Shown here one piece after another: positions 2,720 through 33,881 of a DNA stretch of 64,000 nucleotides. Position numbers and translations under genes: made by a program. The DNA is taken from IMG/VR virus record IMGVR_UViG_3300045988_133395. One strand, written 5' to 3'. Below the pieces are notes generated by a model. That model was given only the letters and a program-made list of their open reading frames with translations, made no database searches and was not told the DNA's origin. The first letter of the stretch is position 1; the number at the start of each line of letters is the position of its first letter. Source of the DNA: a virus.

Positions 2720-3343
2720 ATGGTTACTAATATGCAGGAATATTATGATTTACTCTATCGTATTCAAGATCAAAATAAGCCGAGCTTAGCTGTTTTAATT
2801 CCATCTACAGAAACGATTTATGATGTTGATTTGTCTACAAGAACAATTAATGGTCCAGCCTCTCTTGGTGTAGAGGCTGACCACCGTTCTGAAATTATCT
2901 ATTTTAAATTAAATAGATATTATGACCATATGGATTTAATTAATACAACTTGTTTAATTCAATATGAAAATGCGGAAGGAAAATCTGGACTTTACGTAGT
3001 TCCTTTTTATGATACAGATACTTTTATTGATGAAGATAAGTTGCTAATTCCATGGTGTATTAGTGGACGAGTAGCTGCGGCCGCAGGTAAAGTAAAATAT
3101 TCAATTCGATTTTACAGTATAGATAGTAGTAAATCTGAATTAACTTATAATCTGAGTACAATCGAAACTACAACTGAGATTAAACAAAGTTTAGTAGTAG
3201 ATATTAACTTAGATGAAGAAGGCGATAATGACAGAGTACAGAGAATTCTTGATACTAAAGAATATACTGTAACTGAACAATTAATCGCACGAATTGATCA
3301 AATTAATAAGCAAATGGACATATTTTGGCAAGACGCTTATTAA
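2720..3343 (+). CDS. structural protein, paralog of N-terminal domain of preceding gene
   Basis: 207-aa ORF, GGAGG RBS; aligns to 572..2695 product (DHRSEIIYFKLNRYYDHMDL / DHISEIVYFLVDRFYDNQDL; LLIPWCISG...IRFYSID...LTYNLST / ILIGWCLNN...VRFYIQD...LTYSLST). Confidence 0.6.
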   Translation: MVTNMQEYYDLLYRIQDQNKPSLAVLIPSTETIYDVDLSTRTINGPASLGVEADHRSEIIYFKLNRYYDHMDLINTTCLIQYENAEGKSGLYVVPFYDTDTFIDEDKLLIPWCISGRVAAAAGKVKYSIRFYSIDSSKSELTYNLSTIETTTEIKQSLVVDINLDEEGDNDRVQRILDTKEYTVTEQLIARIDQINKQMDIFWQDAY

Positions 3344-3349
3344 ATATAT

Positions 3350-3387
3350 AGGGGATAAGACATTTTGTCTTATCCCCTTATTTTTGT
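3350..3387 (+). terminator. rho-independent terminator
   Basis: aggggataagaca/tgtcttatcccct perfect hairpin + TTATTTTT. Confidence 0.6.
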
Positions 3388-3446
3388 TTAATAGGCCAAA
3401 TTATAATAATATTTTTAGTCAAGTTTTTATATATCATAGAATGAAA

Positions 3447-3475
3447 TTGACTTAACGTCGTTTTTATGATATAAT
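3447..3475 (+). promoter_or_regulatory. sigma70/sigmaA-type promoter TTGACT-17-TATAAT upstream of tail-fibre gene
   Basis: Perfect -35 TTGACT (3447-3452), 17-nt spacer, -10 TATAAT (3470-3475), 29 nt upstream of TTG start at 3505. Confidence 0.55.
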
Positions 3476-3504
3476 TAACTCAGAGAGAAAGGAGGATTTT
3501 CCTT

Positions 3505-6500
3505 TTGGCAAATTATGTTAAATTTAAACAAGGTTTAAAAAAGGACTTTAATACAACAAATCAGCCATTAACAAATGGTATGATTTATTTTGTTATAGAT
3601 GAAAATAATAATGGTTCTATATACTATGATACTATTGTTGATGGCAAACAAGCTACTAAAAATGGAGCTGTCCATAGAGTTAAATTTTCTGGTTTACCAA
3701 TTAAAATAACTGGTTCTGTAACAGGAACAGGAGTTATTTCTCAAGATGGTGAAACTATTGAAATAAATACATCAACTAATCACTCTCATGGATTAGCGCA
3801 TCAAGATTTTACTGTAACTTTATCAAATGATGATACTAATTTAAAATGGACAAGATTAGGAAACCAAAATGGGGAAGGCTTTTGGTTAAAATCTATTAAA
3901 GGAAATGTTAAAGCTCCAGCTTGGTTCCAACCTAATTATGGTACAGGTATTGCTTTCGGCGGTGGAAGTACAAAGGGTATTATATCTGTTAAATATAATG
4001 AACCCAGTATTAGATTTGCAGGAGGAAATGGTGATGCTCCAGTTTGGTATTTTACCATTACTGGTTCTAATGATAAATCCTATGATTTAAATAGGATTGG
4101 TGGTCATTCAAGTGATAGTGCAAAATTAGACCATAATATTACTTTTAAGATTGCTTCTACTGCTGATGCAACTAATGGCGCCAATGGCACTAAAACTGAT
4201 TTATCTGGTCCCGCAGTTAATTTATATTTGCCAACAAAAATATCTGGTTTTGATTTATTACAAGCATCAAGATTTCAAGGTAATGCAGATAGTGCAACAT
4301 ATGCCACTTCAGCAGGTTATGCAAAAGGATTATTCTTAAACCCAGAAACTCGTCAAGAGGATATGAACTTTAATTTGGCAGATGCTAAATATATAAAAAA
4401 AGTAACATATTCTATGGCAACCTCTACTACTAAGAAAAATAAACCTCCAATAGGAGACGCAAATATTCTTTCTTTTGGATGGGACAATTCTGGTTATGGT
4501 TCTCAGTTAGCAATTCAAAATAGTGGTGCTGGTCATTTAGCTGTTAGAGGTTCTGGCTCTACTAATGGAGCTTCATCTTGGGGTGAATGGAGTACCGTTT
4601 TAGATTCTTCCAACTATACCTCTTATATAAATAATTATTATTGGGCAAATGTAAAAGTATCTACTGCATCAAGTACGGAAACCAAACCAACATTTAATAC
4701 TGCTTATACTTCTAACTGGTGGCGTTCAACTGGCAAAACAGGATGGTGGAATGATACTTATAGTGGCGGTATTGCCATGGAAGATAAAACATATGTAAAA
4801 GTTGCTGGTAATAAGAGTTTCTTCATTCCAAATGGTTCTTTAAAAATTGGTGGTAATGGAGACATTTTCTTCGCTACTGGATATGATGATGCTACTTTAA
4901 AAATATATGGTCAGACTAATACTGATTTTGGTGCTGAAACCATTGTAATTCAAACTTGTTTTGATAATCGAGATCCACAAACATCAGAATATACAACTCA
5001 ATATGCGAATAGATGTAATTTATTATTGCAACCAAGAGGTGGACAAGTTTATATTGGTAAAAATTTAACTACTCCTGGAGATGTAGGATATAAATTATTG
5101 GTTGGTGGAAATCAATGGATTGAGGGTAATTTAGTGTTTAAAGGCGCTAAAGAAATTAAATTTATTGGTTCTAAACAAACTTATTCAATGATTCGTTTTA
5201 TTGATAATACCAGTGACAATTATGGAAATGGTATTTCTATTGGTGGTGGCGGTTCAACAGTTATTGGAGCTGGTGAATCTGCAATGTCTTATGTTACTAA
5301 TGGCGGAGATGAAAGATTATTCTTATTATCTGATGGCGCTATTAATATTGAGGCTGGCGGAGATACTATTTCAAATAGAAAAGGACTTCAAGTTACAAGT
5401 GATGGACATATTCTTCCTATTAAGGCAGAAAACAGTAATCCTAATGCCCAAGATTTAGGAAGTGCAGCTGATTATTGGAGAAATTTATATATAAATAATA
5501 TTACTTTACAAAGTCAAGTTGGGAATAGATTAGTTTGGACAAATGGAAGTAAAATACTCCAAGCAGGATACCATTATGCAGATACAGATAGAATTGCAAT
5601 TAATACAGCTGGACGACAAGGATATAATTTTTATGTAAATGGTTCTTCTTATTTTAGTAGTAATACTTATATCCATAGAAATTATTTTCTTAATAATCCT
5701 TCTACTGGGGCAGGTGAATTAATTCTTACTGCTTTAGGATATAAAAGTGCTGGATACCCAGTTTATAATGACCCAGAATTTGCGTCTGGTTCAAATAGTA
5801 TTTCTGTATATAATAATGCTGCTAATGGAACTGTTACTCATGCTATAGTAAGTGATGCTTCAAGCGGAAATTCATCTGGAAAAGTTTTAAAAATTACTCA
5901 TACAGGTTCAGGTTCTCCTGGTTTTGGAGGATTTGTTCAATATATCTCATCTCGTGCAAATGCTATTTTTATCCAAATTTTTAGAGCAAAAATTCCAACA
6001 GGAAGAAATGTTGCAACAGCTTCAAATAGTATGGGAGATAATTATAAAGATGAATGGCTAACTCCAACAACTGGAACAGGAAGATGGGAATGGTATGCAA
6101 GGCGTGTAATTTGTGGCGCAAGTGGCACATTTTCAACTGGCGGTCATGTTTATATTAAAGATGGAGTCGCTCCAACAGCTTCATCTCCATTAGTATGGTA
6201 TTTATCATATTGTAATGTTATTGATGTTACCAAAGGTAATTATGATGGATTAAGAACCAGATATTCAGACTTTGTAATATATGATTCTGGTGAAAATGGA
6301 AAAGATAATAAGACTCCTATTAATGATAAATATGTTGCTAAAATTGTTACAAAAACTTCAAATGGAACAACTTTTACTCTTAGAGGATTAAATGGTGCAG
6401 GTAATGAATTAGCTGATGCAGTTTTAACTATTCCAAATGCGGGAAGTGGAAAAGCCGGTCTTATCACTGATGCAGCGCAAACTATTTATGGAGAAAAAAC

Positions 6501-23814: not shown

Positions 23815-24312
23815 TCAATAATCAGTTCCCTTATATAAAATTCGTTGATTAGATGAACCTCTCATAAATAAAGAAACATCTCTTTTTGTTTTATCATAAG
23901 GACCGTCAATAAGGCAATCTACTTGTTCAAGTATTGATTTAATTCTATTATTATTCATATCTAAATCTTCTAAACAATATCCTGTCCATAAATAAATTTT
24001 AGTGTCAGGAAGTTTTTCTTTAACAGAATTAATAATTAAATTAGTCAAAAATTGATTTTCTGGACAAAGAGGTTCTCCTCCCATAATACATAAATTACGG
24101 TGTAATCCATTAGCAGTAATAGCTTCAATAACCTCTAAAATAGTATCATGAGTAACTTCTTCTCCACCTTCAAAATCCCAAGTCTCTGGATTATGGCAAC
24201 CCTCACATCTGTGAGGGCAACCTTGTGTAAAAAAAGTTACACTTGTTCCAGGAGCGGCAGAAAAATCATTTTTAATAATTCCTGCATAACGCATTATAAT
24301 TATTCCTCCCAA
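23815..24312 (-). CDS. nrdG: anaerobic ribonucleotide reductase activating protein (radical SAM)
   Basis: GCPHRCEGCHNPETW CX3CX2C motif in NrdG-typical context; ~165 aa; adjacent to nrdD. Confidence 0.8.
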   Translation of the reverse strand: MGGIIIMRYAGIIKNDFSAAPGTSVTFFTQGCPHRCEGCHNPETWDFEGGEEVTHDTILEVIEAITANGLHRNLCIMGGEPLCPENQFLTNLIINSVKEKLPDTKIYLWTGYCLEDLDMNNNRIKSILEQVDCLIDGPYDKTKRDVSLFMRGSSNQRILYKGTDY

Positions 24313-24497
24313 TTAAAAAGCTTGCGGCCGCAGATAGGGCAGTATTTAATATGTCTAATATATTCAAATCCTATTCCGCCATCCCAGTCGTTTGCCATAT
24401 ATAAAGTATCATCTGCATCTAATTCTCTACAATATCTACATTCTTCTGCTTGTTTTAAGTATTCTTCTTTGTCGTGCCAGGTTTTATCTGCGCCCAT
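24300..24497 (-). CDS. small zinc-ribbon protein (possible)
   Basis: 65-aa ORF with CRYC...CPIC; overlaps nrdD 3' end by 43 nt. Confidence 0.3.
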   Translation of the reverse strand: MGADKTWHDKEEYLKQAEECRYCRELDADDTLYMANDWDGGIGFEYIRHIKYCPICGRKLFNWEE

Positions 24498-24973
24498 TCT
24501 CTTTTTCCTCCATGCTTAACACGATGTTCAACTTCATCTTGCTTACCAAGATTAAAAGCAGTTTTATAATTTCCTGTTAAATATCCAGTAACTCTTCTAA
24601 GCTGTTGGATATGAGTGCTTCCACAGATAGGACATCTATCATTAAATTCATCTGTGTATCCGCACTCAAGACATGTGTCGTTTGGTACATTAACTGCAAA
24701 ATATGGAATGTCTTTATCCATAGCATAATTTACAATTTGCTCTAATGCTTCAAGATTATTTTTAATACCAGAATCTAATTCAACATAAGTAATACATCCC
24801 GCAGATGAATAACCAGTTAATTGAGATTCAATATCAATCTTTTCAAATGGAGACATTTCTTTCCAAACTGGAACATGAATTGAATTAGTAAAGAATTCTT
24901 TATCACTTACATTTTCAATTACTCCATATTTTGCTTTAAAGTTTTTTAAAGCTTTATAGCAAAGGTTTTCGGC
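24455..24973 (-). CDS. nrdD: anaerobic ribonucleoside-triphosphate reductase, exon 2 (C-terminal part)
   Basis: AENLCYK at start, Zn site CLECGY...CPICG, glycyl-radical motif RVTGYLTG. Confidence 0.8.
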   Translation of the reverse strand, partial: AENLCYKALKNFKAKYGVIENVSDKEFFTNSIHVPVWKEMSPFEKIDIESQLTGYSSAGCITYVELDSGIKNNLEALEQIVNYAMDKDIPYFAVNVPNDTCLECGYTDEFNDRCPICGSTHIQQLRRVTGYLTGNYKTAFNLGKQDEVEHRVKHGGKREWAQIKPGTTKKNT

Positions 24974-25941
24974 CATTCGAACCCTCGGTTTCCCGATATT
25001 TCAAAAGGGGATTAGACTATATTATCATCTTATTATTCTATTACCAAATAATAAGAGCTCTGTCTTTCGGATATAATATCCTACTCTACTCACTTCTTCA
25101 TTATAAATATTTCTTTTATAACTATGTTTTCGATAGTCGTTAGAGAACAAATCCATTGGTTTTGTATTCAGTCAAGTATCTAAACCAATATCCACAACGA
25201 GGTTTTGTTTTTACATTGTGATTACATTGATTTAATATTGTTGTTTTTGTAACGTGTAATTCTCTTGAAGCTTCTCCTACAGAGCCATACATCTTTAATA
25301 GATTGCCCTGTAAATCAAAACTACAAATATGAATTGATTGATTATCATCCCAGCTTTTATCATTTTTAGCAAGACCATCTTTATAAGCATCTTTAGTATT
25401 TTTTGAATTAGTCCCCCATTCAAGATTAGATACTTCAGGGTTTGCTTTATTATTATCTTTATGCATTACTACTGTATAATTATTTGGATTAGGCAAAAAA
25501 GCTTCTGCAACTAAAATATGCACTCTTCTTTGTCTTTGTCCTTCTGGATAGGTTATATTGGAATATAAATATCCATTATTTTTATTTATAAAATTTGCTT
25601 TGGGATAAAATAAATCATTTCCATAATCTTTATAAATATTACCTTTTGAAGAAATATAATCAGTTTCACTTCCATTAATTAATCGTATTTCTTCATTAAT
25701 TTGACTTCTTTTAATTAATTTATCTGTCATTTTTCTACGTGCCATAAAAAATTCACTCTCCTTCTATATTATATGAATTTTTATTATACACGACTGAAAA
25801 CTTGTGTCCAATGAATTTACCCTACGGGATTAACTTGCCTTATTACAGGTTTAGTCTCTCTTATCATCTTATTACGATTGCCCGTTTAACAGAGTAATTT
25901 TTTCACGCAGTCACCTGCGCGACACCCAATCCGAAAAGTTT
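24974..25941 (-). mobile_element. group I self-splicing intron in nrdD carrying HNH homing endonuclease ORF
   Basis: Exon 1 frame reads YYTP then garbage and stops; exon 2 resumes AENLCYK (conserved NrdD YxTPAExLC); exon 1 ends in U, intron ends in G; structured GC-richer flanks; approximate boundaries. Confidence 0.65.
25140..25745 (-). CDS. HNH homing endonuclease (intron-encoded)
   Basis: VHILVAEAFLPNPNNYTVVMHKDNNKANPEVSNLEWGT HNH motif; own GGAG RBS inside intron. Confidence 0.75.
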   Translation of the reverse strand: MARRKMTDKLIKRSQINEEIRLINGSETDYISSKGNIYKDYGNDLFYPKANFINKNNGYLYSNITYPEGQRQRRVHILVAEAFLPNPNNYTVVMHKDNNKANPEVSNLEWGTNSKNTKDAYKDGLAKNDKSWDDNQSIHICSFDLQGNLLKMYGSVGEASRELHVTKTTILNQCNHNVKTKPRCGYWFRYLTEYKTNGFVL

Positions 25942-27741
25942 AGGTGTGTAGTAAACTCCAAAATTAAGCTTATATTCTTCTTTAAATTCCGCACATCTAT
26001 CTTTAAATAACTGTTCAATTCTTTTAGCCAGTTTCATTCCTTCTGAAGTCGTATGGTCTGTGCCAATAAGAATTTGAAGAGTCTCAGCGAGTCCTAACTG
26101 ACCTACCGCTAAAGTTCCATGTTTTAATGCGCTTCTTATTCCTTCCTCTGGAATATACCCCTTCATTGTGCCATTCTCATACATAAAGGCTGCGGCAGAA
26201 GCATCCTGAGAACAAATCCAATCGAAGCGTTCAATCAACATATCTTTTGCCTGATGAATTTTTTCATCTAAAAGAGTCATGAAATATTCAACTGCAAAAG
26301 CTTCTTTTGCATCTTCGCCAGTTAAAGCATATTGAGACATAAAGTTCTGTTTAGCTTCCATTGCTAATGTAGGTAAAATAATTGTTACAGGACAAATATT
26401 TCCACGTCCATCTTTTAACTGACCGAAACCGTTAATATCGTACCCATTGGCAGTTCTGCATCCCATCGTAGAGAAGTAGGTACGAGGGTCGTTGATGTCA
26501 TATCCTGCGTTTCCAGACCAGTCGACATTAGCATAATTTGGGTACAGTCTTGTGGCGGTTGAACGTAATGCGAGTTTAAATAAATCGTAATTTGGGTCTC
26601 CTTCTTCACGATTGACTCCTTTCATACACTGGAAAATTCCACAAGGAAAAATAGAAGTTTTATGAAGCTTTCCAATACCTTTAATAGATACATTTAATAA
26701 AGCCTCTGTTACTAATCTTCCTTCTGGTAAAGTACATGTACCATAGTTAATAGAAGTAAAAGGTAACTGGTTTCCACTTCGAGATTGTAATGTATTAAGA
26801 TTATGATACATTCCTTCTACAGCTTGATAAGTTTCTTTTATTGTCATATCTACGGCATATTGATAAGCTGCTTCATTTCTAACAAATACATCATCATTAA
26901 TAGAAGCATCAGCTTTAATCCACGCCTCTTTTGCATTAGATAAATCAAAATCTTCATAAGTTCCAGCTAATCCAAGCATCTGACCTTTTTGACAATATTT
27001 AATACCATCTAAGAAATGCTTATAAAAACTTCTACGAACATAAGGAACCATGCTCCAATCTAAGTGAGTAGCAGATACTCCTCCAAACTGCTGTAATGAT
27101 TGTAACTGAAATAATACTGCCAAAAGCTGAAAAGCTGTATTAACAGATTGAGCAGGACGAACATCAGTTTGACGAGTGTTAAAACCATCTCTAAGTAAAT
27201 CATCTATAGGTAATGACAAACAATTATGCATTCCAACAGCATAACTATCTAAATCGTGAATATAAATTTCATTGTTTAAATGATTATCTCTTGACATTTT
27301 AGATACAATATAATCTAAAGCATATTTCTTTGTCATAACTGAGCTTGCTTCGCCCATACGTCCACCAAAAGAATGTTCATCTACATTAGCATTTTGATTT
27401 TGAACGTTGCGGGCTTCCAATTTTTCACTATAAGTTTTAACAAAAACTGCCTCATGCTCTCTCTTTGCTTCTTGTTTATATCTATAACGAATATACGCTC
27501 TTGCAACATCTCTTCTTTCAGATTGCATTAATAAATCTTCTACGCAATCTTGAATAGTTTCTACAGAAATAGTTGTCTTAGAGCGTTTAGCCATTTCTTC
27601 AATTTCAGTAGCAATATCTTCTGAAGTATCTGTCTCATAAAGGATTTTATCTACTTCAATCATTGCTCTATTTACTGCATCAATAATTTTTTCTTTATCA
27701 AATGGGACAATATCACCATTTCGTTTTTGAACTTCTAACAT
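25942..27741 (-). CDS. nrdD: anaerobic ribonucleoside-triphosphate reductase, exon 1 (N-terminal part; ORF in track reads through to 25903)
   Basis: ATP-cone-like N-terminus, class III RNR body; ORF continues 13 codons into intron. Confidence 0.8.
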
Positions 27742-28788: not shown

Positions 28789-31380
28789 TTAAAAAACATC
28801 TTCTCCTTGGTATCTATCACTTCTAATTTCCAAACTTCCATCTTCGTTAATTTTATCAATCTTATATAATTGATGTCCATTAGAAGAAGCATATTTCTTA
28901 GAAATGAAATCATCCCCTGACCTAATGCCCATTACTATAATCATATTTCCTCGATTGAACCAAGATTTTTCTCGAACCTTTTTAGTTCCATCCTCTTGTT
29001 TTTCAGAAATCTGTTTATCAAATAATGAGAAATATTCTTTTCTAAATTTAACATTAACTACTCCAGAAGTTGTCAATATAGTTACTGTACTTTTAGTTTT
29101 ATTTTTAGCAATACAAGTTCCACAAATTTTATTCAATTTGAATATATTAATTTGCTTTGCACCTTTTGTAAATGTCCTTTCTACAATAGGTTCTTGCGGC
29201 AGCTTATCAAAATCAACAAAACCATATCTTTGAGTATCAACATGAGATAATTCATGTTCATGGTAATAGAAACATAATGCCTGCATTTCCCAAGCTGATA
29301 AAGTTCCTTGAGCATATTTATCCCAATCATCCTTAAAGATTTTTTCATTTAAGTTCTGAAGAATTTGTTCTTTTTCTTCCGCAATCCACTCTCTGAATAC
29401 ATCCATCCATTTTTGATATACTTTGTCCCATGCTTTCATATTTAGAGAATAACCCTCTAATAAATCATCATGTTCCATTTCAATCAAAAAATTCATTGCT
29501 CTATCATCTATATGATAATTAGTTGTATCGCCTTTAATCTTACAAACAGATTTTAGATAACGATTAAATTCATAAACTCTTCTCGCCATAATCTGTTGTT
29601 CATTTTTTTCTGGAAGAAGATTATATTTAATCAAACCTCCCATGTTTTGTAATGTAATTCGTTTCTTTTTATCGCAAGTTTCCCAAATGTACCAACCCAT
29701 ACAAATCTTGCGGTCAATCATTGTATCAAATGCTCCACCTTTAATAAGTGAAATCATTGCTTGTTTATTTGGATGCACTTTTAATAAAAAGTCTTTAGGT
29801 GAAATATAAGGTCTATTTTTGATAATATCATCAATTACCGCATCACTGACATTCAATAAACCTTTCATTCCATAAAGAATCTGATTATTTTTGGCATCAG
29901 GCTTAAATCCATAATCTGAGTTATTTATATCAACAAGACTCATTTTAATTCCCGCCGATATAATTTCACCCATCGCCTTTGCGATTTTTCCATAATCAGT
30001 TGAAGCTGTTTTCTTCACAGAAATAGATTCAGATTCATCATCCTCATCAATCTCTAACTCACTATTATCTTCAAGTGAGCCGCTGTTTACAATTAAACAT
30101 GCACAATCCCAATAAATAGGATTCCAATTTGTTGCAATATATAATGTTTGAACACCAATGAAACTATAAGCCAAAGCATGAATAACACTAAATGAATAAC
30201 CCATCTGTGGACCAACTCCACATTTCCATACATACTGACCAAGCTTCTCACTTGCCGCCTGTGCCAATACTTTTTCATGCAAAGCTGGAATTTTATTCAT
30301 CTGCTTTTTACCAACAATCTTACGAGCCGCATTTGCTTCTCCAAGGCTGAAGTGACAAATCTTATCATCCATCAACATTCTCATTAACTGTTCCTGTGAA
30401 GGTGGAACTCCATAAGAACTCTTAAAGTAAGGCTCAAGAGTTTTCTGCTCTTCTTTGGTAAGACCAAATTTTGTCATTTCATCATACCATAATTGAATGT
30501 TTTGTTTAAAACGATAATATTTATCCATCGGACGTTCTTCTCCATCTTCGCCCATAAGTCTCATTAGACCATTCGCATCCGCCATTTCCAATACATTCTG
30601 AGGTTTTAATTTCTTTGCAACCTGCGCACCAACCTGAGAATCGAACTGGAAAGTATTAATAACAGATACTTTACCCAATGCATCCCAAATTTTCTGATCA
30701 TTTAAAGGTAAAACATTAGGATGAAAATATTTATCATAGACTTCCCGCAAACTTAACTCTGGCTCAATTTCATTATCCTCTTGGAGTAATTGAATAGTTT
30801 GAACCAACTTATCCTGAACCTCAGTTACAAGAAAATCATATTTTGTTAATCCCATATATTCTGCATCATGTAAGTCAAACTGAGTAGTAATCTCACCTTT
30901 TGGAGTTTTCATAAAAGCACTATGCTCAAATGGGTCATCTCCAAATAAAATTACACCAGATGCATGAGAACCTCTATGGTTTACAAGACCTTCAATAGCT
31001 ACAATAATATCCAATAAACCTGGATATTTATTTACTTCATTTACAAATGTTTTAACAGGTTTACGACCTTTTTCTGGATTTCCATAAACAACTTCTTTAA
31101 TTGTCCATAAAAATCCTCTTTCTTCTGGAATTAATGAACTCATATACTGAGCTTCATCAACGTCAATTCCTTCTGGATAATCCTCACTTCTATAACCTCT
31201 ACAAGCTGTCTGAATTGCAGATTTGGTTCCTTCTGTACCGAATGTTGCTACAAGAGTACATCCAAGATTTTTCTTTGCCCATTCCATGATATTATCATAG
31301 AACATCTTTCCACGCTCTTCTTTAATCTTACGAAGAATCTCCGGACGTTTAGACGGGCATATGTCGATATCAATATCCAT
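28789..31380 (-). CDS. dnaE: DNA polymerase III alpha (DnaE-type, C-family) exon 2: palm/fingers/thumb part
   Basis: Starts MDIDIDICP (DnaE MPDIDIDF), NHRGSHASGVILF (GxHAAGVVI motif); true exon start may lie a few codons upstream of ATG. Confidence 0.8.
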   Translation of the reverse strand: MDIDIDICPSKRPEILRKIKEERGKMFYDNIMEWAKKNLGCTLVATFGTEGTKSAIQTACRGYRSEDYPEGIDVDEAQYMSSLIPEERGFLWTIKEVVYGNPEKGRKPVKTFVNEVNKYPGLLDIIVAIEGLVNHRGSHASGVILFGDDPFEHSAFMKTPKGEITTQFDLHDAEYMGLTKYDFLVTEVQDKLVQTIQLLQEDNEIEPELSLREVYDKYFHPNVLPLNDQKIWDALGKVSVINTFQFDSQVGAQVAKKLKPQNVLEMADANGLMRLMGEDGEERPMDKYYRFKQNIQLWYDEMTKFGLTKEEQKTLEPYFKSSYGVPPSQEQLMRMLMDDKICHFSLGEANAARKIVGKKQMNKIPALHEKVLAQAASEKLGQYVWKCGVGPQMGYSFSVIHALAYSFIGVQTLYIATNWNPIYWDCACLIVNSGSLEDNSELEIDEDDESESISVKKTASTDYGKIAKAMGEIISAGIKMSLVDINNSDYGFKPDAKNNQILYGMKGLLNVSDAVIDDIIKNRPYISPKDFLLKVHPNKQAMISLIKGGAFDTMIDRKICMGWYIWETCDKKKRITLQNMGGLIKYNLLPEKNEQQIMARRVYEFNRYLKSVCKIKGDTTNYHIDDRAMNFLIEMEHDDLLEGYSLNMKAWDKVYQKWMDVFREWIAEEKEQILQNLNEKIFKDDWDKYAQGTLSAWEMQALCFYYHEHELSHVDTQRYGFVDFDKLPQEPIVERTFTKGAKQINIFKLNKICGTCIAKNKTKSTVTILTTSGVVNVKFRKEYFSLFDKQISEKQEDGTKKVREKSWFNRGNMIIVMGIRSGDDFISKKYASSNGHQLYKIDKINEDGSLEIRSDRYQGEDVF

Positions 31381-31395
31381 TATATACTTTAAAAG

Positions 31396-32550
31396 TATTG
31401 GACTATCTCTTTCACAATAATTTACTGAGAATATTTTACTTCAATTATTGCTAAAACGCGCTACGGAATAGTGCTTATTCTCTATTCCTCTTGAGAATAT
31501 AAAATATTTAATTCTCATTTAGTCTCTACACTCCAAAAATAACCTTTATATATCGTATGCTCCTTAATAGCTTTATTTAATCCTACATGTCCTTTTAATC
31601 CTAAAAAATCTAATGCGGCTGTTTTTGCATTAAAAACTCGAATTAAATTATTATTTTCATCATACATATAGATTTTTTTGCCATTAATTGCATTATTTTT
31701 ACTTTTTCCATACATGCCATTTTTTTCTCCAGAATTTAATCCTTTACTATGTTCAGACATTAGCCGTTTTGACTCTTCTGTATGATGTTTACCATACATA
31801 CCATTCTTTTTTCCACTAACTGCCTTAGACATATTTTTTTTATATTCTGTTGTTTGCATATATGAAGTGTCTCTATTTTGTCTTATTTTATTTTTTGTTT
31901 CTTCTGTTAAATGAACACCATATCGAGGATTTTTATCTCCTTTTCTCTGTTCACTTAATTTTTTAGAATAAGCGGTTTTTTGTTCTAAAGACCATCCAGC
32001 GATTGTATTACCACCATTACCGCCTTCATGAATATTATAAAAGTTTTTATCTTCCACTGCATTATAAACATTTATAAATTCTTTTTCTTTTTGAGAATTT
32101 TCTTCTTCGTTTTTAGAAATATATAATATTTCTCTTTTAAAATTCTCTTTACCATATTTTTTAACCGCTTGTTTTAATAAAAGTCCACTTCCTAAGTAAC
32201 TATCATTTAATTCTCCATGGTGTTTACCTATATATTTATGTCCATTTATTAAATTTGTTGTCATATAAATAAAATATTCCATATCATTACCACCTTTCAT
32301 ATTTTATATAATAAAGGCGATATTGACTTTGACAAACATTGACCAAGATATTTTGTTATTTTTAAAGCACGGTATTACAAAGTCCAACCATTTCTGGCCA
32401 CTCGCTCTCTTAGTCAGCTGATTCGTGTATTAATTAAACATACCTTATTTTGCTGATACCGTTAGCACTGTTTTTTATAACAGCACACCCTTTAGCAAGG
32501 TTCACGTTTTTTATTTACAACTCGGCAATATCAATATCAGACTACCGAGT
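31396..32550 (-). mobile_element. putative group I intron in dnaE carrying GIY-YIG homing endonuclease (approximate boundaries)
   Basis: PHP-domain ORF reads ...FRYLNEERI then 14 nonsense codons and stops; downstream ORF resumes exactly at conserved MDIDID; intervening region structured/GC-richer and holds free-standing HEG. Confidence 0.55.
31515..32300 (-). CDS. GIY-YIG homing endonuclease with NUMOD3-like repeats (I-TevI-like)
   Basis: YFIYMTTNLINGHKYIGKH GIY-YIG core; three repeats G(D/K/E)KN(P/G)(R/M)YG(V/K)H downstream. Confidence 0.8.
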   Translation of the reverse strand: MKGGNDMEYFIYMTTNLINGHKYIGKHHGELNDSYLGSGLLLKQAVKKYGKENFKREILYISKNEEENSQKEKEFINVYNAVEDKNFYNIHEGGNGGNTIAGWSLEQKTAYSKKLSEQRKGDKNPRYGVHLTEETKNKIRQNRDTSYMQTTEYKKNMSKAVSGKKNGMYGKHHTEESKRLMSEHSKGLNSGEKNGMYGKSKNNAINGKKIYMYDENNNLIRVFNAKTAALDFLGLKGHVGLNKAIKEHTIYKGYFWSVETK

Positions 32551-33881
32551 TCGATTCTCTCTTCGTTGAGGTAACGGAAGAAAGGTAAATCCCATTCGAT
32601 TGGGTCCAACTGAGTAATTCCCATAAGGTAATGATTAAGTGCGGCACAACTGGAACCACGACCAGCACCTACCATTGAACCGCAATCCCAAATCATATCA
32701 ATGTAATGTTGAAGTGTATTTGGATAACGGAACATATTTGTTTCAAGTTTTTCACTAATGATACTTTTAACTCGTGCTTCTTCCTCAAGCTCATCAAGAT
32801 AACGTCTATCATTAATTTTTTCAAGTTTTTCAAGCTGATTTAAACACTCATTTACCCAATAACGATTCTGAATATCATCATCCATTAACATTGCAGATAA
32901 ATGTGGATATTGTTTAAATCCTCTTACTTTTGGATAATCTTTAACTTCTACAGATGGAATATCCTGCTTATGAAAAAGACTATAATATTCAATTTTATTT
33001 TGTAAATCTAAAGTGTTTTCAAAAATTACATCTACATATCCATCTGGGAAACATGGAGATAATAACTCTTCTACTTCATCGCTATCCATAAGTCTGGCAA
33101 ATTCATAAAAGTCATCAACTTCACGCTCTCCACCTTTTGAATTAAGATATGCTTTATGAACCATTCTATCTTCTTTTGTTAAATAATGAGAGTCAGTTCC
33201 AACAACCATTTTAACATTATATGCAGTTGCAATTTTAAACAACTGAGAATTTACAGTCATTTGGTCTTCCTTATTAGATGGAGCACATTCAATATAAAAA
33301 TCATCTCCAAATAAATCCAGAACAAAATCCATAAAATCTTGAATCTTTTTCTGAAATTCCATTGCCATCTTTTGGTCATTTACCTTTAACGCTTCTGCAT
33401 ATAATAAAGACCATGAAGATAATTCTCCACCAATACATGCACTTGTTGCAATTAAATGACCTTTATAATGTTTTACAATTTCAGTTAATTCATCTTTTAA
33501 AGTCGGAACTCTTTCCATACCTCTATCCATATATGAATAATACCAAGCTGTAGAACTTAACTCTCTTAACGCTTTATGACCGATTGCATCTTTAGCAATC
33601 AAAATAAAGTGATAATATTTCTGACCATGATTTCTTGTATCAGTTAAATAAATCTCATTTCCTAACCCAATCACAAAATCAGGATTTGTTTCTCTTAACT
33701 CCGTTGCAATTTTATTTATTTCAACGTGCGCACAAAGGGCTTCATGGTCAGTTATACAGATACCACTAAGTCCTAATTCGATTGCTTTATTGATTAAATC
33801 TTTTGGGTGATTGGTTGAATCCAAAAGACGTAAGTTTGAATACTCTGTATGGTTATGACAATTAAACCACTTTTTGCTCAT
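32511..33881 (-). CDS. dnaE: DNA polymerase III alpha exon 1: PHP domain (last ~14 codons are intron read-through)
   Basis: FNCHNHTEYSNLRLLDS (PHP HxH...D), ITDH, conserved YLNEER before junction. Confidence 0.8.
   Translation of the reverse strand: MSKKWFNCHNHTEYSNLRLLDSTNHPKDLINKAIELGLSGICITDHEALCAHVEINKIATELRETNPDFVIGLGNEIYLTDTRNHGQKYYHFILIAKDAIGHKALRELSSTAWYYSYMDRGMERVPTLKDELTEIVKHYKGHLIATSACIGGELSSWSLLYAEALKVNDQKMAMEFQKKIQDFMDFVLDLFGDDFYIECAPSNKEDQMTVNSQLFKIATAYNVKMVVGTDSHYLTKEDRMVHKAYLNSKGGEREVDDFYEFARLMDSDEVEELLSPCFPDGYVDVIFENTLDLQNKIEYYSLFHKQDIPSVEVKDYPKVRGFKQYPHLSAMLMDDDIQNRYWVNECLNQLEKLEKINDRRYLDELEEEARVKSIISEKLETNMFRYPNTLQHYIDMIWDCGSMVGAGRGSSCAALNHYLMGITQLDPIEWDLPFFRYLNEERIELGSLILILPSCK

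Follow-up and report, generated by a model that had tools for sequence, protein, structure and literature searches.

The nrdD locus considered here raises the question of whether a viral ribonucleotide reductase (RNR) gene that is divided over two open reading frames (ORFs) gives rise to one enzyme or to two polypeptides. The virus is represented by IMG/VR record IMGVR_UViG_3300045988_133395, of which a stretch of 64,000 nucleotides (the window; all features described below lie on its minus strand) was analysed. An earlier note, made from the letters of this DNA alone, had proposed that nrdD is interrupted by a group I intron encoding an HNH homing endonuclease, and in the current study this proposal is supported by a P1-P10 RNA architecture and by comparative evidence, with splicing as the predicted outcome. 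We conclude with high confidence that the insert, 968 nt in length, is a mobile intron of group I and of subgroup IA type, located between Pro600 and Ala601 in the TPAE(N/S)LC segment of NrdD, and that it is probably removed by splicing.

Exon 1 of nrdD (25942..27741) comprises 600 codons, encoding an ATP-cone and positions 2-414 of the Pfam NRDD profile, and is part of an N-terminal ORF of 612 aa residues (27741..25903). It ends ...GGA GUU UAC UAC ACA CCU, the last base (U25942) being the U of the 5' splice site; past Pro600 (...NFGVYYTP) the frame continues for 12 codons (KLFGLGVAQVTA), and not the 13 that had been counted, before it reaches a stop. The C-terminal ORF (24976..24455; 173 aa) opens M|AENLCYK, while exon 2 proper (24455..24973; 172 codons plus stop) begins with the codons GCC GAA AAC (AEN) and covers NRDD profile positions 415-562, including the glycyl-radical domain with its RRVTGY motif and a Cys4 zinc site; the Pfam Gly_radical domain corresponds to residues 38-133 of the C-terminal ORF. 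The intervening intron (24974..25941) starts AAACUUUUCGG and ends ...UUCGAAUG, with a terminal omega-G at 24974, and its length (25941..24974) is exactly the 968 nt previously given, just as the U expected at the end of exon 1 and the G expected at the end of the intron are both seen. The NRDD profile passes from position 414 at residue 600 of the first ORF to position 415 at residue 2 of the second, in agreement with the claim that the downstream ORF resumes at AENLCYK and thereby restores TPAE(N/S)LC. Ligation of the exons in silico (predicted junction ...UACUACACACCU|GCCGAAAACCUU, with ACACCU|GCCGAA at the joint) restores one continuous conserved reading frame for a 772-aa NrdD, residues 4-756 of which align with the solved NrdD structure 8P23 (E = 2e-120). 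Concerning base composition, the suggestion that the ends of the insert are richer in guanine plus cytosine is correct for the 5' non-coding part (35.2% compared to 32.1% for the whole window) and incorrect for the 3' part (30.7%), though the latter is still above the value of the HNH ORF (27.4%).

Alleles without the insert, alignment with which had been advised in order to fix the splice sites, were found both in a cultured phage and among uncultivated relatives. The NrdD of Thomasclavelia phage TR-TP1, the closest cultured relative (69.5% aa identity), reads through the window's site without interruption (...NFGVYYTPAENLCF...), and an uncultivated relative (L151), with an empty site of the type ...TACTACACGCCG|GCCGAAAAC..., matches the in-silico-ligated exons at 97.3% over 2,268 nt. 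Since this latter match contains no gap over its whole length, the 968-bp element amounts to a precise insertion into an allele that is also found empty. When the complete region was compared with the phage collection by megablast, two Thomasclavelia phages only were returned, both on a piece of exon 2, from which it follows that the window's phage itself is absent from the cultured collection. An IMG/VR scan with the junction peptide identified 80 close NrdD relatives, in 76 of which TP|AE is uninterrupted. Exon 1 ends in CCU in all 19 distinct occupied alleles, whereas the 59 distinct empty alleles carry CCU (15), CCC (18), CCA (17) or CCG (9) at this position; the nearest empty alleles (L102 and L103) have ACG CCG where the window has ACA CCU, in an otherwise almost identical stretch of 50 neighbouring nt. 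This pattern at the splice-site codons would be in line with either co-conversion during homing or an empty site that resists cleavage, and the presence or absence of the insert among near-identical alleles indicates that the intron is in all likelihood mobile.

Introns occupy at least four different sites in the nrdD genes of phages. The window shares its site (600|601) with the Enterococcus myovirus EF1. L102, which is empty there and whose exon 2-side product is 100% identical to that of the window, instead bears an 891-nt insert (337-1227) at STMG|CRT, corresponding to residues 427|428 here and lying immediately ahead of the Cys in the conserved motif MGCR; this insert displays a P1 (AUGGGU/GCCCAU), the string AUAUAGUC followed by a GUGA-capped hairpin, and a terminal G. 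In TR-TP1 an HNH-carrying insert (L002, about 2770-3715) is found at residues 456|457 (...|PTLAME), while the site of the T4 nrdD intron (L004) corresponds to approximately residue 313.

Part of the evidence for the intron interpretation is the predicted RNA fold, which was drawn on the window's sequence and then counted over an alignment of 19 distinct ORF-deleted introns from the same nrdD site, with 8 nt of each exon retained. These derive from 96 IMG/VR loci (L005-L100) recovered by a 3'-end pattern search, about 20 of which hold a complete intron at this site; loci of the 'GCAGAAAATTTATGTGG' subgroup (L007, L018 and others), in which exon 1 was not located by tblastn with the window's exon 1 tail, were excluded. 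The order of elements is P1, P2, P3, P4, P5 (three small helices), P4', P6, the ORF, P6', J6/7, P7, P7.1, P7.2, P3', P8, P7', P9 and the terminal G, and the fold combines a P1 with U.G, an omega-G with P10, and P4-P6 and P3-P8 domains with a P3/P7 pseudoknot, which are the defining features of group I introns.

At the 5' end, P1 (25922..25947) pairs ACACCU and the first intron residues AA (25947..25940) with the internal guide UUGGGUGU (25929..25922), placing a U.G wobble at the splice site in all 19 aligned sequences, and two of its pairs show covariation in which the exon side changes synonymously (ACACCU/GGGUGU, ACUCCU/GGGAGU, GCCCU/GGGGC). The P1 loop holds the 5' strand of P10 (UUCGG, 25935..25931), which pairs with CCGAA of exon 2 (24968..24972) and would align the 3' splice site; CCGAA/UUCGG is replaced by CCGAG/CUCGG in relatives, three of the five pairs showing changes on both sides. 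P2 (25904..25921) is a hairpin, CGCGCAG-GUGA-CUGCGUG, with compensatory changes in six of seven pairs, and the in-frame stop of the exon 1 frame (UGA, 25905..25903) is located at its 3' edge and is kept in relatives. P3 brings together CUCUGU (25889..25894) and ACAGAG (25058..25063) from approximately 830 nt apart, across the ORF, and is paired in 100% of cases with compensatory changes in five of six pairs. P4 (ACGGG 25885..25881, CCCGU 25828..25824), which has the same sequence in the T4 introns, encloses the P5 region (P4 and P5 together spanning 25824..25885), composed of the covarying helices AUC/GAU, GACU/AGUU and CCU/AGG. P6 likewise spans the ORF, its 5' strand AGGGUAAAU (25815..25823) pairing with AUUUGUUCU (25144..25152), which is made of the last codons of the HNH ORF (...GGA UUU GUU CUC UAA); it is 100% paired with both-sided changes in two pairs, and J6/7 (CUAAC, 25143..25139) includes the ORF's stop codon UAA.

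The 3' half of the core is built around P7, the 5' strand of which (GACUAU, 25133..25138) lies within AACGACUAUC, found unchanged in the td and nrdD introns of T4, while the 3' strand (AUAGUC, 25015..25020) lies within AUAUAGUCU, also as in T4. Between P7 and P3' (25069..25122) are P7.1 (25122..25100; GUUAUAAA/UUUAUAAU, four of eight pairs compensatory) and P7.2 (25081..25069; GGAUA/UAUCC, four of four). These two helices mark subgroup IA, to which the T4 introns belong (Michel and Westhof 1990), and on this established knowledge the intron is labelled subgroup IA-like. P8 (25029..25055; CUUAUUAUU/AAUAAUAAG) has compensatory changes in six of nine pairs, while P9 (24982..25009), with CCCU/AGGG around a CGG-GAAA-CCG hairpin, is almost invariant across the 96 IMG/VR loci because it served as the search pattern. 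All aligned members end the intron in G.

The sole ORF of the insert (25140..25745; 201 aa) is located in the P6 loop and its product matches Pfam HNH_3 (30.1 bits; cut-off 24.8) as well as phrog_59, the PHROG family 'HNH endonuclease' (E = 1e-35), so that its assignment to the HNH rather than the GIY-YIG enzymes holds. The only solved structure matched is that of I-HmuI from the SPO1 DNA polymerase intron (1U3E; E = 1.4e-3, residues 71-190 against 51-170), with which the H...N...N motif positions and the C-terminal DNA-binding part are aligned; although this similarity is weak and the target gene is a different one, the product is an I-HmuI-like HNH enzyme with a predicted nicking or cutting activity. 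It shares 43% identity over nearly its full length with the enzyme of the same-site EF1 intron (E = 4e-38) and 34% with that of TR-TP1 (E = 1e-14), which is inserted elsewhere, a pattern that would fit a specificity that goes with the site. A ribosome-binding site (RBS) of its own, AGAAGGAGAG (25765..25756), containing AAGGAG (25763..25758), is present inside the intron as the earlier note had stated. Also within the intron, a promoter-like TGGACA-16-TATAAT (25810..25783; 11 of 12 matches) is positioned 38 nt upstream of the start codon and may serve expression of the gene; it is the best sigma-70-like site in the surrounding 4.8 kb (23.7-28.5 kb) and TTGGACA...TATAAT is kept in several relatives, though the promoter scan overall (26 sites, 22.9 expected) did not exceed chance. 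In related nrdD introns, otherwise conserved HNH ORFs contain in-frame stops (L013, L014, L037, L051, L073, L090 and L096): TGA occurs at three conserved Trp positions in L013 (EWGT, SWDD, YWFR) and TAG at the Gln of PEGQRQRR in L014, L051 and L096, which looks less like decay than like possible recoding of TGA to Trp and of TAG to Gln.

When the structure is counted over the alignment, 96.9% of 1,561 cells are standard pairs, compared to 36-43% after a shift of the 3' partners by one to three columns, and 38 of 85 pairs show both-sided changes as against 9-13 in these shifted controls; the 19 sequences are related and some nearly identical, so that fewer independent events lie behind these figures than the numbers of cells would suggest. 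On four of five measures none of 500 shuffles reached the observed value. The ORF-deleted RNA of the window has a thermodynamic fold z of -3.28, with P1, P2, P3, P5, P7.1 and P8 in the centroid, and near-identical copies (L006, L033, L059 and L067) keep the same structure via compensatory changes in P1 and P2.

The relatedness of the aligned sequences is one of several points that weigh against the intron interpretation. P4, P7 and P9 do not vary in the alignment and therefore contribute no covariation evidence, and the distance between the RBS and the ATG of the HNH gene, at 12 nt, is long. Furthermore, the Rfam scan that the earlier note had proposed gave no match: Intron_gpI (RF00028) was found neither at the gathering threshold (50 bits) in the whole window, scanned with the HNH ORF in place, nor, even partially, at E <= 10 in 24800-26100, chance matches alone (Lnt, rox2, miRNAs) being returned. 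The controls point to a limit of the model. Rfam scores the T4 nrdD intron, in which the ORF is downstream of an unbroken core, at 105 bits, yet the EF1 and TR-TP1 nrdD inserts are also missed and the experimentally proven T4 td and nrdB introns, with ORFs that split the core, reach just 40.3 and 35.7 bits; conversely, two uncultivated family members with the window's P7'-P9 module and an unbroken core are recognised (L012, 85.7 bits; L055, 50.0 bits). These three controls attribute the miss to the approximately 660 nt that are inserted between the P6 strands, upstream of P7. Against this, the 3' parts of the equally split td and nrdB introns still attain 36-40 bits, whereas that of the window attains none; the window's core is thus further from the Rfam seed than those of td and nrdB, beyond the effect of ORF splitting, and A+T richness or different P5 and P7.1 elaborations are possible causes. 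A family covariance model (R1) assigned 64 bits to the same-site EF1 intron and 44 bits to that of TR-TP1 and, with default filters, found no T4 intron; when these were switched off, the highest match in the T4 loci was the nrdD core, at just 11 bits (E ~0.013) beside a spurious match of 10.3, and on account of this low score it is not counted as proof of homology.

In searches by nucleotide sequence, blastn of the 215 nt of 5' non-coding sequence against the phage collection found no match; conservation sufficient for blastn is confined to the 3' half, which matched 256 phage records, mostly of Staphylococcus, Enterococcus, Listeria and Bacillus phages. Three strings of the core (AACGACUAUC, GAGUAG...CGAAA and GAUAUAGUCU) can be aligned to the nrdD intron of T4, and the T4 introns have identical strings at P7 together with its flanks (AACGACUAUC, GAUAUAGUCU). 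The likeness to the T4 nrdD (sunY) intron that had been pointed out is correct in a generic sense, in that host gene, ribozyme class and core strings are shared, and fails in its particulars: the T4 intron is inserted at AFQAYE|YEVNTL and not at 600|601, it is without P2, and its I-TevII GIY-YIG ORF is downstream of an unbroken core, while the window's HNH gene occupies the P6 loop. With site, ORF position and enzyme family all different, a T4 nrdD lineage for the window's intron was rejected. Closer in layout is the T4 td intron (group IA2, I-TevI), the ORF of which is also looped out of P6, splitting the core, and which shares P7.1/P7.2, a GUGA-capped P2, the strings AACGACUAUC and AUAUAGUCU and an early in-frame stop; it differs in its host gene (thymidylate synthase), its GIY-YIG enzyme and its proteobacterial phage. 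Like that of the window, the td intron ends in ...AAUG.

The true homologue of the window's intron is that of EF1 (MF001358.1), which is inserted at the same point (...STP|AESLC, compared to ...YTP|AENLC here) and carries between P6 and P7 an ORF annotated as 'HNH homing endonuclease # Phage intron'. The P7'-P9 modules of the two are nearly identical and their P7, P7.2 and J8/7 strings match, while the EF1 intron is 1,032 nt long, its 267-aa ORF begins within the P4-P5 region, its P2, P5 and P8 differ in sequence and length, and its nrdD exons are much more distant. Among the RNR genes of phages, nrdD is the one found divided most frequently, accounting for 6 of 16 split cases (PMC3653736). 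Of 104 genomes of gut jumbo (Jug) phages, 95 have an nrdD broken up by group I introns and HNH genes, splicing having been seen in gut-phage metatranscriptomes in some cases (PMC12880540); those phages infect Bacteroides/Phocaeicola and their introns reportedly average approximately 206 nt, compared to 968 nt in the window.

Based on these data, nrdD transcription would run through the intron and the RNA would fold into the P1-P10 core, in which pairing of the end of exon 1 (ACACCU) with the guide GGGUGU positions the U.G wobble of the 5' splice site. A free guanosine docked in P7 (GACUAU/AUAGUC) would attack after U25942, P10 (UUCGG with CCGAA of exon 2) would align the 3' splice site after G24974, and ligation of the exons would yield an mRNA for the 772-aa NrdD with a glycyl-radical domain wholly derived from exon 2. 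The HNH enzyme presumably nicks or cuts the intron-less nrdD of co-infecting phages near TP|AE, whereupon repair of the cut allele would copy the intron in (homing). Splicing in vivo, HNH expression and cleavage specificity are what we infer from structure and homology. Translation of the HNH ORF and folding of the core would be expected to compete, as in T4 td, since the last codons of the ORF form the 3' strand of P6.

The sole serious rival is that nrdD is a gene in pieces which is not spliced, the 612-aa NrdD-a and the 173-aa NrdD-b being translated separately and assembled afterwards. Each half is an ORF of its own, complete with a start and a stop codon, exon 2 is a self-contained glycyl-radical domain, and Aeromonas phage Aeh1 offers a precedent in its functional nrdA-a/nrdA-b, split by mobE without an intron (PMC3653736). 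In addition, the insert ends ...GAGGG-UUCGA-AUG (24974-24990, ...CCGAGGGUUCGAAUG|GCC), in which the AUG is in frame with exon 2 and has a Shine-Dalgarno-like GAGGG 5 nt upstream. This GAGGG is the 3' strand of P9, however, and many members of the intron family that reside in other, unrelated genes also end ...AAUG; GAGGG...AAUG is therefore a feature of the intron and not an adaptation to nrdD. Nor does a gene in pieces offer any ground for base pairing in the RNA to be under selection; covariation is nevertheless seen with the exons in P1 and P10 and across the ORF in P3 and P6. Finally, CCU is fixed in the occupied alleles (19 of 19, compared to 15 of 59 empty ones), for which splicing is the sole explanation. 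On balance we consider two separate polypeptides very unlikely. A combination of both modes is given equally little credence: unspliced RNA could yield the 173-aa glycyl-radical fragment as a free 'spare part', by analogy with E. coli GrcA/YfiD, which serves pyruvate formate-lyase in this way, and, if this were true, the fragment might complement oxygen-damaged NrdD or the exon 1 product and the intron would additionally act as a switch that decides whether the enzyme is made fused or split.

It might also be argued that the intron has decayed and no longer splices, leaving nrdD as a pseudogene or the host enzyme to be used instead. The Rfam result, negative even at E <= 10, would be in keeping with this, and the in-frame stops in the HNH ORFs of several relatives show that such elements can decay or be recoded. 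Nevertheless, every modelled helix is intact in the window, both exons are open and of full length, the HNH ORF is unbroken and its motif residues can be aligned with those of I-HmuI, nrdG (24312..23815) follows directly after nrdD, and L006, L033, L059 and L067 preserve the structure through compensatory changes; decay is accordingly rated marginally lower still than a gene in pieces. Although phage RNR genes also host inteins (PMC3653736), an intein or a group II intron was rejected with a negligible residual probability, as the exon 1 frame stops after 12 codons so that the insert is no in-frame continuation, HNH_3 is the only ORF content and no intein or reverse-transcriptase domain was found in the insert, and the P1-P10 structure, terminal G and U.G at the 5' splice site are those of a group I intron.

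Between nrdD and nrdG a 65-aa ORF (24300-24497) overlaps the final 43 nt of nrdD and displays a CxxC...CxxC arrangement (MGADKTWHDKEEYLKQAEECRYCREL...YCPICGRKLFNWEE); a Pfam search of this ORF gave no match, and EF1 likewise has small unnamed ORFs between nrdD and nrdG. Across the wider family, the P7'-to-P9 module ATATAGTCYAATCCCC-N(4-16)-ATCGGGAAACCGAGGG is nearly invariant in the 96 loci. The remainder of the intron varies, and so does the host gene, examples of the latter including nrdD, a polymerase gene, a gene with an exon 2 that reads (W)LDNLKLGYG, and others. This suggests that many introns have the 3' module in common or that introns have recombined with one another. Two contigs that carry family members also encode, beside tRNA genes, a ROOL RNA (L012, 5253-5900; 271 bits) and a drum RNA (L055, 7562-7672; 65.9 bits).

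A second gene of the window, encoding a DnaE-type DNA polymerase III alpha (28789-33881), is split in the same way. Its N part (33881..32511) comprises the PHP domain and positions 15-100 of the DNA_pol3_alpha profile, its C part (31380..28789) positions 103-259, opening MDIDIDIC in the catalytic PDxDxDF-like region, and between them lies an ORF for a GIY-YIG/NUMOD3 endonuclease (32300..31515). By eye, the insert contains a P1 (CUCGGU/GCCGAG) with U.G, a P10 (GAUAUU/GAUAUC), a P7 (GACUA/UAGUC) and a terminal G, exon 1 would end ...ELG at 32544, and the whole looks like a putative second group I intron of approximately 1,166 nt (32543..31378). The Rfam scan of the window at the gathering threshold did not find this insert either. 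In L030 a family intron is located just before DIDTDLSPS, apparently at the same polymerase site.

The nrdD intron is thus well supported but ordinary, split nrdD genes being already known in phages, and our knowledge of group I introns and of phage ribonucleotide reductases is unchanged by the finding. In practical terms, annotation should merge the two nrdD ORFs into a single product of 772 aa and mark the HNH gene as encoded by the intron. A pipeline that depends on the Rfam gathering threshold will miss both the nrdD intron and the putative one of the polymerase, the ribozyme core being split by the ORF. The sequences compiled here for comparison reveal a large family of introns in uncultivated phages, which is useful for studies of homing and for the development of better intron models.

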